The notes under the pieces are model-generated. The model saw only the letters and a program-made list of their open reading frames with translations. It searched no databases and was not told the origin of the DNA. Positions 57,740 through 64,000 of a DNA stretch of 64,000 nucleotides are shown piece by piece. This DNA comes from Dehalococcoidia bacterium. GTDB lineage: Bacteria > Chloroflexota > Dehalococcoidia > Lucifugimonadales > UBA3495. Both the position numbers and the translations under genes were made by a program. Within the stretch, counting starts at the first letter, position 1. The number at the start of each line of letters is the position of its first letter. The stretch lies in assembly GCA_965199995.1 (NCBI GenBank), contig OZ241328.1, forward strand, positions 2,060,627 to 2,124,626, in the 5' to 3' direction.

Positions 57740-58501
57740 CTAATCCTCGGCCGTCAGGCGGCGCAGTCTCTCTTGCAGTTCCCGTATCAGGAGCTGGTCG
57801 GATTCGCGGGAGGCCCGTTCCGACTGCAGGGCTTCCAGGGTGGACTGGTGGGCAGTCTGCTCATCCCGAAGATTCCTGAGATAACTGCCGGTGTCGGGGT
57901 CATAAAAAAGCAGTCGTTCCTCAAAGGCCGTCAGACTCAAATTAAGAATGCTGCTATAACCTTTCAGCAACCCGTCCGGCGCAGTAGTTAAGGGGATGGG
58001 CCGGTAAACCCCTTCCAGCAAAACCTCTCCGGCCAAATGTTCCCCGTAGTATTCCTCGCCGGTGGGGTCGAACCGCCAGTACTCGGGGATGCCGATTTGG
58101 GCATAAATTCTTCTCTTGGCCGACACGTCGTTGTCTTTTGTTGTATCAGAGGCGATTTCCAGGGCAAAATCCGGCGCCTTGCCCACTTCCCAAGGCAGAT
58201 ACAGCCGCCTTCTCCGAATGGATGCCGTGTCCACCCCGAAAGCGATATAGCAGTCCGGCGCCACTCGCACATTCAGGTTGCGGCGGTCATAGCAGATGAA
58301 GGTATTGCTGCTGAGAAAGTTGCTGGTGTTGAACCCCAAGCCCAAAACTCCGATATGGACCGCGAGAATCTGCATACACTCTTGCAATACGGTGTCTTGG
58401 TACATAGATAGCGGATCAGGCTCATCTGGGTTGAATTCCAGTTTGCTGTAATCAATGTCAGTGCAATGCTGGTAGGGCAGAATCCTAGCTTTCGTCGTCA
58501 T
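57740..58501 (-). CDS. Uma2 (DUF820) family PD-(D/E)xK endonuclease with a C-terminal coiled coil
   Basis: 253 aa. PDCYIAFGV, APDFALEIASD, KRRIYAQIGIPEYWRFDP. Confidence 0.7.
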   Translation of the reverse strand: MTTKARILPYQHCTDIDYSKLEFNPDEPDPLSMYQDTVLQECMQILAVHIGVLGLGFNTSNFLSSNTFICYDRRNLNVRVAPDCYIAFGVDTASIRRRRLYLPWEVGKAPDFALEIASDTTKDNDVSAKRRIYAQIGIPEYWRFDPTGEEYYGEHLAGEVLLEGVYRPIPLTTAPDGLLKGYSSILNLSLTAFEERLLFYDPDTGSYLRNLRDEQTAHQSTLEALQSERASRESDQLLIRELQERLRRLTAED

Positions 58502-60746: not shown

Positions 60747-61166
60747 TCAGCCCAGGCTGACCACGGCCCGGGCGCGGGCTACGGGTTCGCCCCGGTCGTT
60801 CTCCACGGCTACGACGCACTCAACCAGGCGAAACTCGGCATCCCTGTGCTTGTCCACCACCCAGGCGGACAGGCTGATAGTGTCATTGGCGAGGATGGGC
60901 CGAAGATATTCGACGTCCAGGCTGCTGCCCTCGGCTTGCAGACTCTCGGGCGGAAAGCCCTTACTCAACAGTTCCCTCACATAGCCTTCGACTGTCTTTG
61001 GGGGCAGCGCATCGGATGCTGAGGCGCCGAATTCATCACCTCCTTCGCCGTACAGGGCGGTGTATCGTTGAATACTCTCTTCCGTTTCCCACTTTATGAT
61101 GACCGGAAGAGTATCGCCCGGTTCGATGGAATCGAAATCAACGGTCACCGCCCACAGCCTAGACAT
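60747..61166 (-). CDS. Hotdog-fold (MaoC-like) protein
   Basis: 139 aa. C-terminal ...LVECVVAVENDRGEPVARARAVV strand pattern. Assignment is weak. Confidence 0.4.
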   Translation of the reverse strand: MSRLWAVTVDFDSIEPGDTLPVIIKWETEESIQRYTALYGEGGDEFGASASDALPPKTVEGYVRELLSKGFPPESLQAEGSSLDVEYLRPILANDTISLSAWVVDKHRDAEFRLVECVVAVENDRGEPVARARAVVSLG

Positions 61167-61326: not shown

Positions 61327-62046
61327 ATGGCAGATTCAGAAAGGGAAGAAACCTACAGCAGAGCGATGGTTATCATGGCCCACGCCGATGATATGGAGTG
61401 GACCTGCGCGGCAACCCTCGCAAAATTGTGCACCGAGGGCTGGGAGGTGGTGCTAGTCTTATGCACCGATGGCTCCAAAGGCAGCGACGACCCGGCAATG
61501 ACTTCAGAGCGTTTGTCAAGAATTCGGGCAGAGGAGCAGCAGGAGTCGGCTCGAATCCTGGGCCTGAAGGACGTGGTGTTCTTGGGTTATCCCGATTCGT
61601 ATCTGGAACCGACGCTGCAACTACGGAAGGACCTTGCCCGAGAGATACGCCGCTACCGCCCCCATGTGGTCATTACCGAGCCACCGACCCGCGACATTGA
61701 CAGCCGTTACTACGGCAGCCACCCGGATCACCTGGCCACGGGGGAGGCCGCCCTTGCCGCCGTCTTTCCCACGGCCCGAGACCGGCTCACTTTCCCGGAA
61801 TTGCTGGAAGAAGGTCTAGAACCCCACAAGGTGCGCGAAGTCTGGATTGTCGGGGGACTGGAAGGCTCTGACCATTTCGTAGACGTGGACGGCTACATGG
61901 AAACGGCCATCGCCGCGCTAAAGTCCCACAAGTCGCAGGTAGACCCGCAGGACGCCGAAAAGTACTTCCCCATAGGCCGCGCCGACACCGCCGCCAAAGT
62001 CGGGCTGAAGTATGCCGAGGCGTTCAAGACGATTAAGTATTACTGA
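61327..62046 (+). CDS. PIG-L/LmbE family N-acetylglucosaminyl deacetylase
   Basis: VIMAHADDMEW (AHPDDE-type), HPDH, SHKSQ. Confidence 0.75.
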   Translation: MADSEREETYSRAMVIMAHADDMEWTCAATLAKLCTEGWEVVLVLCTDGSKGSDDPAMTSERLSRIRAEEQQESARILGLKDVVFLGYPDSYLEPTLQLRKDLAREIRRYRPHVVITEPPTRDIDSRYYGSHPDHLATGEAALAAVFPTARDRLTFPELLEEGLEPHKVREVWIVGGLEGSDHFVDVDGYMETAIAALKSHKSQVDPQDAEKYFPIGRADTAAKVGLKYAEAFKTIKYY

Positions 62047-62050
62047 CGGG

Positions 62051-62491
62051 ATGGTGAGGGCGGGGAAGGGATTGAGTTTCGGTTATGGGGAGAACGCCGT
62101 GACTTTGAGCCAGGTAGAATACGAGGACATCATTAAGGATACCACCAAAGAAGGATACCACCAAAGAATTACCGAAGATATCTCGTGGGAGGGCGGTTCT
62201 AATTCGCGAGCTAAGGAATTTAGAATCGACATTGATTCCGGGGAAGGGTACCTCATATTTGTAAAGGGTTGGTTCAATCCCTTTTCCGGTAAGTTGTCTT
62301 ACGCCATTATTCATCGAACTGTGGGCAGAATCTATGGCCTTGACCTAGGGGCAGACCATTGCAATCCTGATGGCGAATTTGTAGGGGAGAAGCACAAGAA
62401 CTACTGGGTGCCGGACAGCCGGGATAAATGGGCTTATGTGCCAGAGGACATTACTGAGACTTGGAATCATCCGGTAGCTGCCTGGGAATAG
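62051..62491 (+). CDS. Hypothetical protein (low-GC islet gene A) with motif H-x-NPDG-x6-HK-x-YW-x7-KWAY-x-P
   Basis: 146-aa ORF with codon usage visibly less GC-biased than its neighbours. No named family recognised. Confidence 0.5.
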   Translation: MVRAGKGLSFGYGENAVTLSQVEYEDIIKDTTKEGYHQRITEDISWEGGSNSRAKEFRIDIDSGEGYLIFVKGWFNPFSGKLSYAIIHRTVGRIYGLDLGADHCNPDGEFVGEKHKNYWVPDSRDKWAYVPEDITETWNHPVAAWE

Positions 62492-62562
62492 TTCTGCGCC
62501 GAGGCAAATTTGCGGCACTCGGGTACAATTCAGGAGCCGGCGCCACGGAGGCGAATGCAACT

Positions 62563-63348
62563 ATGAATATAAACGAGCTTTGCGCTTCTATCGGTCAGGC
62601 GTTGCCGCCTCTGTTTATGTGCTCCCCTGCCCCAACGGAGGGGGTGCGTATCCGCACGCCTTTGCTGTACCCCGACGGCGATGTTGTGGACGTATTTGTT
62701 CTGGAGCGCGGCAGTAATTATACTGTTACTGATTATGGGGATGCGCTGGGCTGGCTTAGTTTGCAGTCTATAAGTCGGCAGCGTTCACCCAAGCAGCAAA
62801 TGCTGATACGCGACGTATGTCAAACGCTCCGTATAGATCCAGATCTGTTTCAAGATCAGTTGATGATTCGCGGAGTAATGAAGGGCGCTTTGGGAGAATC
62901 CGTGATTCGCGTCGCGCAGGCAGCCGTGCGGGTTTCCGACTTGTGGTTCACATTTCGGAGCCAATCGCATCAGACAACGGCAGAAGAAGTGGACGAATGG
63001 CTGCGCGAAAAGGAGATACATTTCGAGCGGCAAGTTGTAAGGCAAGGTCGTTCTACCCAAAACTGGACAATTGATTTCGAGATACGCATCAACAACCGGA
63101 CATCTTTGACATTTCTGTTGAGCACCGGGTCTCGCGGCGCCGCCAACAGAATTATGGAGCACGTTCTAGCTGGTTGCGTTGATTTGAGCCATCTCAAAGA
63201 AAGACAACCCGGCCTGGAGTTTGTTTCCCTGTTCTATGACCTGTCGGATGTCTGGCAGGAACAGAATTTCAATCTAGTGAGTCAACACTCAGAAATTGCC
63301 CGGTGGTCCGACCCGGACCAATTTGAGCGAATCCTGAAAGCGTTATGA
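62563..63348 (+). CDS. Hypothetical protein (low-GC islet gene B), DUF1828/DUF1829-like architecture suspected
   Basis: 261 aa. N-terminal ...IRTPLLYPDGDVVDVFVLERGSNYTVTDYGDALGWL resembles DUF1828. The C-half is of unknown type. Confidence 0.45.
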   Translation: MNINELCASIGQALPPLFMCSPAPTEGVRIRTPLLYPDGDVVDVFVLERGSNYTVTDYGDALGWLSLQSISRQRSPKQQMLIRDVCQTLRIDPDLFQDQLMIRGVMKGALGESVIRVAQAAVRVSDLWFTFRSQSHQTTAEEVDEWLREKEIHFERQVVRQGRSTQNWTIDFEIRINNRTSLTFLLSTGSRGAANRIMEHVLAGCVDLSHLKERQPGLEFVSLFYDLSDVWQEQNFNLVSQHSEIARWSDPDQFERILKAL

Positions 63349-63438
63349 CCGGCCGTCACAAGAGACGGCGCCCAATCTCCGCGCGCCCTTTGTATTCCCC
63401 GGCCATCGCCAAGGGTGGAGTTGGAGCGTTGGTGGGGT

Positions 63439-63472
63439 GCCGCGTCCTGTCTGGATTCAGGGTGGACGCGGC
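63439..63472 (+). terminator. Hairpin after islet gene B
   Basis: GCCGCGTCC ...16 nt... GGACGCGGC followed by ATCCCTTTTG. Confidence 0.35.
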
Positions 63473-63493
63473 ATCCCTTTTGCGGCTTCTGGG

Positions 63494-64000
63494 TTATGCC
63501 GGTTTGCGGGCGGTTACTTTGAAGCTGGCGGTGTTGGTGTAGGTGGCCTTTTCGGAGTCTTTCCAGAACTCGATGCCTTCGCCGCTGATTTCGATGCCCT
63601 CGAAACCGGCGCGGCGGAGGCGTCCCATATAAGTCTCGTGGAACTCGGCCCCCGCCGCGCAGGAAACCCAGCTTTCGGCGTCGTTCGCCACCGGGCCTTC
63701 GGGCGTCAATGCCAGCACATCGGACAGATGGATGCGTCCACCGGGGGCCAGCACGCGGAAGCTCTCGCTGAATACAGCGTCCTTGTCCGGAGACAGGCAG
63801 ACAACGCAGTTGGAGATAATCACGTCGTAGGCGTCGCTGGGCAAGGGCATAGCCTCCATCTCGCCCTGCACGAAATCGACATTGGTCAGGCCTAGGTTGT
63901 CCCGGTTTTTGCGGGCCAGCTCCAGCATAGACGGCGTCATGTCCAGTCCGGTAACGCGGCCGGTTTCGCCCACTTGCTGGGCGGCGAGGAAGCAGTCGAT
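63494..64000 (-). CDS. arsM: Arsenite S-adenosylmethionine methyltransferase-like class I methyltransferase; N-terminus lies outside the window
   Basis: ...DCFLAAQQVGETGRVTGLDMT, VIISNCVVCLSPDK, SDVL..., VSCAAGA Cys positions typical of ArsM. Confidence 0.65.
   Translation of the reverse strand: MDCFLAAQQVGETGRVTGLDMTPSMLELARKNRDNLGLTNVDFVQGEMEAMPLPSDAYDVIISNCVVCLSPDKDAVFSESFRVLAPGGRIHLSDVLALTPEGPVANDAESWVSCAAGAEFHETYMGRLRRAGFEGIEISGEGIEFWKDSEKATYTNTASFKVTARKPA

Follow-up and report, generated by a model that had tools for sequence, protein, structure and literature searches.

A low-GC PDC-M24 cassette, a catalogued phage defence candidate, with a truncated first gene in a Dehalococcoidia genome

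The locus described here is a compact islet of two adjacent same-strand genes, A and B, lying between a PIG-L gene and a convergently oriented methyltransferase gene in a 64-kb stretch of Dehalococcoidia DNA (the window; all positions refer to it, and the features are collected in Table 1). It stands out by composition. The A-B segment has a GC content of 0.507, that of the whole window being 0.604, and is the minimum among 1250-bp stretches across all 64 kb. Sliding GC drops right after the PIG-L stop, from about 0.60-0.63 to 0.46-0.52, and rises again past position ~63400, and the GC3 values of A (0.54) and B (0.56) compare with 0.71 ± 0.07 for the ORFs of the window. A preliminary description of this DNA had reported precisely such an abrupt fall in GC and codon bias after the PIG-L stop, with a recovery near a hairpin, and both parts of that observation are borne out. 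The islet is a genuine 1.4-kb insertion carrying a two-gene cassette.

The hairpin that probably terminates the A-B transcript has two 14-bp arms (63434-63447 and 63464-63477) with 93% complementarity, and a TTTT run occupies 63478-63481. The intergenic region in which it lies folds better than shuffled sequence (z = -3.1), and GC-rich hairpins are found 3' of B in the syntenic loci as well. At the boundaries of the islet neither an integrase gene nor flanking direct or inverted repeats beyond chance-level 10-13-mers were found, in agreement with the same description; repeats of this kind were ruled out as insertion scars, and the 11-mer pair at 61904 and 63400 sits partly within PIG-L. A scan for sigma-70 promoters, which is uninformative for this phylum, gave no hits. 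A 65-aa ORF on the forward strand (63345-63542), whose ATG overlaps the TGA of B, was considered as a third gene and rejected: it is unconserved, has matches elsewhere only in its tail antisense to the methyltransferase gene, and is judged spurious. The same ORF is called as a gene in Logan assemblies.

Table 1. Features of the A-B islet, in window coordinates
Feature	Position	Strand	Remarks
Inserted islet	62047..63493	+	Between PIG-L stop and stop of convergent methyltransferase gene; lowest-GC segment
Gene A (DUF6978 / PDC-M24A), truncated	62099..62491	+	GTG start, 130 codons, then TAG
Perfect 16-nt tandem duplication (AAGGATACCACCAAAG twice) inside A	62135..62166	+	Also in Logan assemblies L151 and L152
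Premature amber codon	62489..62491	+	CAG to TAG; replaces a Gln conserved in at least 90% of homologues
Untranslated A remnant	62492..62566	+	Last 24 codons (FCAEANLRHSGTIQEPAPRRRMQL) and original TGA
Gene B (PDC-M24B), 261 aa, intact	62563..63348	+	DUF1828 ~1-135; restriction-endonuclease-like domain ~139-261
GC-rich hairpin and T-run	63434..63481	+	Probable intrinsic terminator of A-B transcript

The islet had been described as two ORFs separated by 71 bp. The ORFs are indeed present at 62051-62491 and 62563-63348, but the gap between them, to judge from its translation, is a remnant of the coding sequence of A, that is, a lesion rather than the native architecture. When the frame of A is read through the TAG, it gives FCAEANLRHSGTIQEPAPRRRMQL and stops at the TGA at 62564-62566, in a 4-nt overlap with the ATG of B. 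This translation fits the family consensus QFCxEANLRHxGTxxxP; every conserved position in it has been retained, which points to a recent lesion. The Shine-Dalgarno sequence of B (GGAGG, 62547-62551) also lies inside the remnant. At the other end, the ATG at 62051 is probably not the true start of A, since its homologues begin at the residue encoded by the GTG at 62099, which is preceded at a distance of 6 nt by a Shine-Dalgarno sequence (GGGGAG, 62087-62092).

Full homologues of A are about 150 aa long and reach about 25 residues past the stop in the window: the protein encoded here has lost its conserved C-terminal helix through a real nonsense mutation, which had been overlooked previously. 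A sequencing or assembly error was rejected as the source of the TAG, since three Logan assemblies from separate runs (SRR33960554, SRR33991098 and SRR33991072) contain the islet at 99.9-100% identity with the identical stop; one of the three departs from the window at five other positions. Recoding or read-through of the stop is unlikely, because TAG serves as the normal stop of 28 of the 56 ORFs in the window, more than any other codon. A second lesion is the tandem duplication inside A, which adds a net 15 nt and thereby a five-residue insertion just past a conserved Lys, and is absent from all homologues. As 16 nt were duplicated, a second event of 1 nt must have restored the frame.

The A protein matches the Pfam family DUF6978 (PF22398) above threshold (1.3e-9; 38.9 bits against a gathering cut-off of 29.6), covering only positions 1-118 of the 133 in the profile, where full-length homologues cover 1-131 or 1-133. 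It likewise matches the PADLOC model PDLC04533 (PDC-M24A; 3.7e-44, residues 19-146), with the C-terminal 25 residues missing. The family is small: a set of 1.84 billion proteins contains 410 cluster representatives of it (50% identity), and these are stand-alone proteins of about 150 aa with essentially no domain fusions. A model built on the full-length homologue P0002 (pLDDT 91.7, pTM 0.86) has a helix at each end, the C-terminal one at residues 120-130, with an antiparallel region of seven strands between them; the TAG of the window maps to residue 126 of the C-terminal helix. Foldseek searches with this model returned nothing significant from the PDB (best E = 0.3) or BFVD (best E = 0.03), and searches of PDB sequences with family profiles returned nothing below E = 0.1. 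The most conserved positions are K17, W25, F36, R72, G79, H82, H94, H96, F127 and G137, the last two of which are lost from the protein of the window by truncation; H94 is invariant, and H96 is replaced by Asn in the subfamily found in the window. In the model, H82 lies on one strand and H94 and H96 on the adjacent one, an arrangement that suggests a metal or catalytic site. A motif of His, Asp and Lys residues in A had earlier been likened to such a site. It does correspond to the conserved core of the family (H..N..H-K-N/H), and residue conservation is what suggests the catalytic or metal-binding role proposed for it.

Gene B encodes a protein of two predicted domains (AlphaFold pLDDT 88.5). 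The DUF1828-like N-terminus noted previously is a significant match to PF08861 (E = 4e-8; 33.9 bits against a cut-off of 22; profile positions 1-91 of 91), and conservation within B is highest in this half; the protein as a whole is matched over residues 4-258 by the PADLOC model PDLC04540 (PDC-M24B; 6.5e-83). A Pfam scan of the C-terminal half alone matched no family. The matches of the B model in the PDB by Foldseek are almost all PD-(D/E)xK proteins: Can2 (2e-4), Cdn1, AF1548, the RLE domain of R2, Bax1, Nt.BspD6I and Hjc. The order of elements in residues 139-261 (α-β-β-β-α-β) fits the PD-(D/E)xK core, and the conserved residues of this half are D171 (at least 80%), E173, E199/H200, D207 and D225/D226. 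No canonical D...(D/E)xK motif can be recognised among them, and strand 3 has no conserved ExK. The C-terminal half fits a restriction-endonuclease-like or PD-(D/E)xK-like fold and is a putative nuclease. Its predicted core is shared with Can2/Card1/Cdn1, AF1548, the R2 RLE domain, Bax1 and Hjc (Foldseek E from 2e-4, probability up to 1.0), and B resembles Can2 further in joining an N-terminal domain to a nuclease-like one. It differs from these nucleases in several respects, however: the TM-scores (0.2-0.44) are low, DUF1828 takes the place of CARF as the N-terminal domain, no canonical catalytic motif was identified in B, and no cyclic-oligonucleotide synthase is encoded nearby.

Although the islet had been put forward as a possible undescribed system, the pair is a candidate already catalogued as PDC-M24 in PADLOC-DB v2 (Payne et al., 2024; preprint 10.1101/2024.01.29.577857, supplement file 8). 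There it is cassette CAS_00098, FAM_00129>>FAM_00065, with a count of 153, one of the 145 'phage defence candidates' picked for their embedding in BREX, DISARM or type I restriction-modification (R-M) loci (10.1101/2024.01.29.577857). Besides the strong matches to both the M24A and M24B models, the order and adjacency of the genes agree, A preceding B on the same strand as in FAM_00129>>FAM_00065, and relatives of the pair are embedded in type I R-M loci as in the definition of the candidate. The copy in the window differs in being solo, in belonging to a Dehalococcoidia genome and in the truncation of A by a nonsense codon; embedding in a known defence system was the basis on which PDC-M24 was discovered and is not required of each member. 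A literature search found no experimental report on PDC-M24 and no mention of it in any main text, while DUF6978 and DUF1828 appear in a few incidental mentions, in annotations of S. aureus and Avibacterium. In one study, eight other candidate systems were assayed and only four gave protection.

A scan for relatives with one genome per species yielded 70 loci, mostly in Dehalococcoidia MAGs, with further hosts among the Caldilineaceae, Latescibacterota, Thermoanaerobaculia, Gemmatimonadota, Planctomycetota, Vicinamibacteria and Proteobacteria. A is directly followed by B in 69 of them, mostly with a 4-nt ATGA overlap of stop and start: the two genes are an obligate, translationally coupled pair. 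Across phyla about 40 positions in each of A and B are invariant or nearly so. Two of the checks proposed in the preliminary description, whether homologues of the two genes are neighbours elsewhere and whether they lie in a defence-like context, therefore gave positive results, the latter by virtue of the two PADLOC matches and of the 23 loci (of 70) in which the pair is found inside a same-strand type I R-M operon; R-M genes lie within 10 kb in 6 more. The embedded arrangements are HsdM-HsdS-[variable]-A-B-HsdR or HsdM-A-B-...-HsdS-HsdR, with stops and starts often overlapping, including overlaps with the start or stop codons of hsdS or hsdR (for example in loci L009, L014, L028 and L032). 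ApeA-like, HEPN/MNT and PIN proteins are co-embedded neighbours in the R-M loci. In the remaining 41 loci no R-M gene lies within 10 kb, and A and B are both intact in the majority. At such solo loci the pair is found among metabolic genes at many sites, 150 sampled neighbours spanning 119 Pfam families. The window belongs with them, since no HsdM, HsdS or HsdR homologue was found within its 64 kb and the pair is not R-M-embedded here. Two side observations concern the embedded loci. The slot beside A-B also houses other cassettes: a nucleoside 2-deoxyribosyltransferase-like protein, DUF2806, an ApeA-like protein and a HEPN/MNT pair (L009:9027-9986, L014:8733-9761, L039:3085-4491 and L005:9006-9864). 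The Thermoanaerobaculia contig OZ246956.1 has two copies of A-B (L040 and L042), each within a different type I R-M locus.

The history of the insertion can be approached through the site itself. In marine contigs (L072-L088, L093 and L121) the site is empty: PIG-L lies beside the methyltransferase gene without A or B, at a distance of mostly 140-260 bp and at most about 800 bp. These relatives have the order MaoC-PIG-L-methyltransferase, and their PIG-L is 63-71% identical to that of the window. Five other Dehalococcoidia genomes (L013, L017, L019, L021 and L025) possess the pair where the window has it, with PIG-L on one side and the convergent methyltransferase gene on the other. From this pair shared within the clade and the empty sites in distant marine relatives, we conclude that the cassette was gained by an ancestor of this clade within the Dehalococcoidia, and is an old insertion. 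In the syntenic loci A and B are 65-74% identical to those of the window, as against mostly 78-94% for PIG-L, FAH and the methyltransferase; the cassette has since either evolved faster than its neighbours or been swapped between lineages. The GC of the pair is below that of the 8-kb flanks in 68 of 69 loci (median 5.6 points lower). Together with the empty marine sites and the many chromosomal positions occupied, this supports the view, held from the outset, that the pair is a horizontally acquired accessory module. An origin from phages or plasmids was considered and rejected, only isolated weak matches having been found: A had no match in 50,697 phage records and B a single weak one, to a haloarchaeal virus, and among plasmids A had one weak match only, to a Haloarcula plasmid.

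Damage to the pair is unevenly distributed between its two genes. In 9 of the 70 species representatives (L039, L048, L052, L057, L062, L063, L066, L069 and L070) a stop, a frameshift or a truncation has broken A, whereas B is disrupted in 3 (L033, L034 and L066) and absent from L069; true decay and assembly indels are both possible causes. Loci in which just one of the two genes is disrupted number 8 for A, the window among them, and 2 for B, even though A is the shorter gene (binomial p about 0.007 by our own calculation). Some of the frameshifts in A may be sequencing or assembly errors, many of the comparison genomes being, on our assumption, possibly error-prone assemblies. The more frequent breakage of A alone fits a role for A as the costly partner of the pair.

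We consider it fairly probable that the islet is a solo copy of a mobile PDC-M24 cassette whose products act as a complex, most likely as an anti-phage or abortive-infection system, with the copy in the window probably inactive or reduced to B alone. This reading is favoured by the coupling of the genes and their embedding in R-M operons, by the rapid evolution and patchy distribution of the pair, and by the endonuclease-like fold of B. Against it are the lack of R-M genes in the window, the fact that most loci are solo among metabolic genes, the protection by only four of the eight other candidates assayed, and the failure of the C-terminal half of B to show a canonical nuclease motif or to match a Pfam nuclease family. 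In such a system A and B would form a complex, in which the highly conserved DUF1828 domain of B may bind either A or a phage cue, while its PD-(D/E)xK-like domain may bind or cut nucleic acid; A, a predicted small β-protein whose clustered His residues (H82, H94 and H96/N) sit on two neighbouring strands, would supply a metal-dependent activity or act as a costly effector. PrrC, an anticodon nuclease, is a single ABC-ATPase-type protein, and prrC sits within the EcoprrI type I R-M locus between hsdS and hsdR. Relatives of the A-B pair occupy the same M-S-X-R operon position as PrrC (and RloC), and by analogy the cassette might act as a latent back-up effector coupled to restriction, called upon when restriction fails. 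The two are otherwise different: there is no sequence or fold similarity, and A-B is a two-protein cassette. A more specific proposal, which we regard as speculative and would not expect to hold, is that DUF6978 is a new-fold His-cluster metalloenzyme that forms, with a DUF1828 sensor and endonuclease-like partner, a mechanistically new R-M-linked defence module firing when type I restriction is evaded or inhibited; the frequent inactivation of A would then reflect its autoimmune cost.

Several of these observations could also be read in terms of a toxin-antitoxin (TA) or addiction module, in which one partner (A, going by its frequent inactivation) is toxic and the other neutralises it, and which persists by post-segregational killing, stabilising the R-M operons or sites that carry it, without a primary anti-phage role. 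Like type II TA modules, the pair is a small, overlapping two-gene operon that is mobile, patchy and often found in defence loci. The compact arrangement with its 4-nt overlap, the solo insertions scattered among housekeeping genes, the disruption of A alone far more often than of B, and the presence of bona fide TA-type genes (PIN, HEPN/MNT) in the same R-M-embedded niches all speak for it. However, neither A nor B matches a toxin or antitoxin family in Pfam, NCBIfam or PADLOC, both exceed the size of typical type II partners, and no DNA-binding antitoxin domain was detected. We regard this explanation as unlikely, with the proviso that one module could play both a TA and an abortive-infection role.

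The pair might instead be an accessory factor of type I R-M, modulating HsdR, alleviating restriction or processing DNA after cleavage, with the solo copies as decaying leftovers. It is indeed always on the same strand as the operon, often overlaps the starts and stops of hsdS and hsdR, and is damaged in the solo copy of the window. Yet the solo loci, 41 of 70, mostly have both genes intact, the solo pair has been retained at one site in at least 6 diverged genomes, and unrelated cassettes fill the same embedded position, which points to a permissive slot and not to a dedicated partner; we think such a role improbable. It is equally doubtful that the pair is a selfish or neutral passenger that does nothing for the cell, or that this genome harbours a pseudogenised relic of it. 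The two recent lesions in A, the TAG and the perfect 16-nt duplication, would suit such a reading. Against it stand the strong conservation across phyla, with its ~40 invariant or near-invariant positions per protein, and the conserved gene order and overlap; moreover, B has escaped damage in this genome and the remnant of A retains its full match to the consensus, which marks the damage as recent. An anti-phage or abortive-infection role remains the reading that we prefer for the family.

What had been an anonymous low-GC islet, correctly perceived as an accessory, linked and defence-like module though not a novel one, is now assigned to a catalogued candidate defence family. For those who would test that family, the relevant properties are the obligate linkage of A and B with overlapping codons; the location of about one-third of the copies within type I R-M operons; a distribution centred on Dehalococcoidia and other uncultured lineages; the preferential loss of A in nature; a confidently predicted fold of A without counterpart in the PDB or BFVD and with a conserved His cluster; and an endonuclease-like C-terminal domain in B. 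It is the family, more than the copy in the window, that merits experiment: the latter is damaged and unsuited to functional work, for which intact relatives such as those at L005 or L009 are preferable.

Two further genes in the neighbourhood of the islet have diverged more than the genes next to them. The MaoC-like dehydratase gene adjoining PIG-L (60747-61166, reverse strand) is far more diverged than PIG-L, its product being 31-49% identical in marine relatives (metagenome loci L071-L093) and 62-68% within the clade. A gene for a putative restriction endonuclease of the Uma2 family (57740-58501, reverse strand; Pfam E = 3e-12) is 55-60% identical in the syntenic genomes, where the adjacent FAH is 88-94% identical, and is hence another fast-evolving gene of this block.
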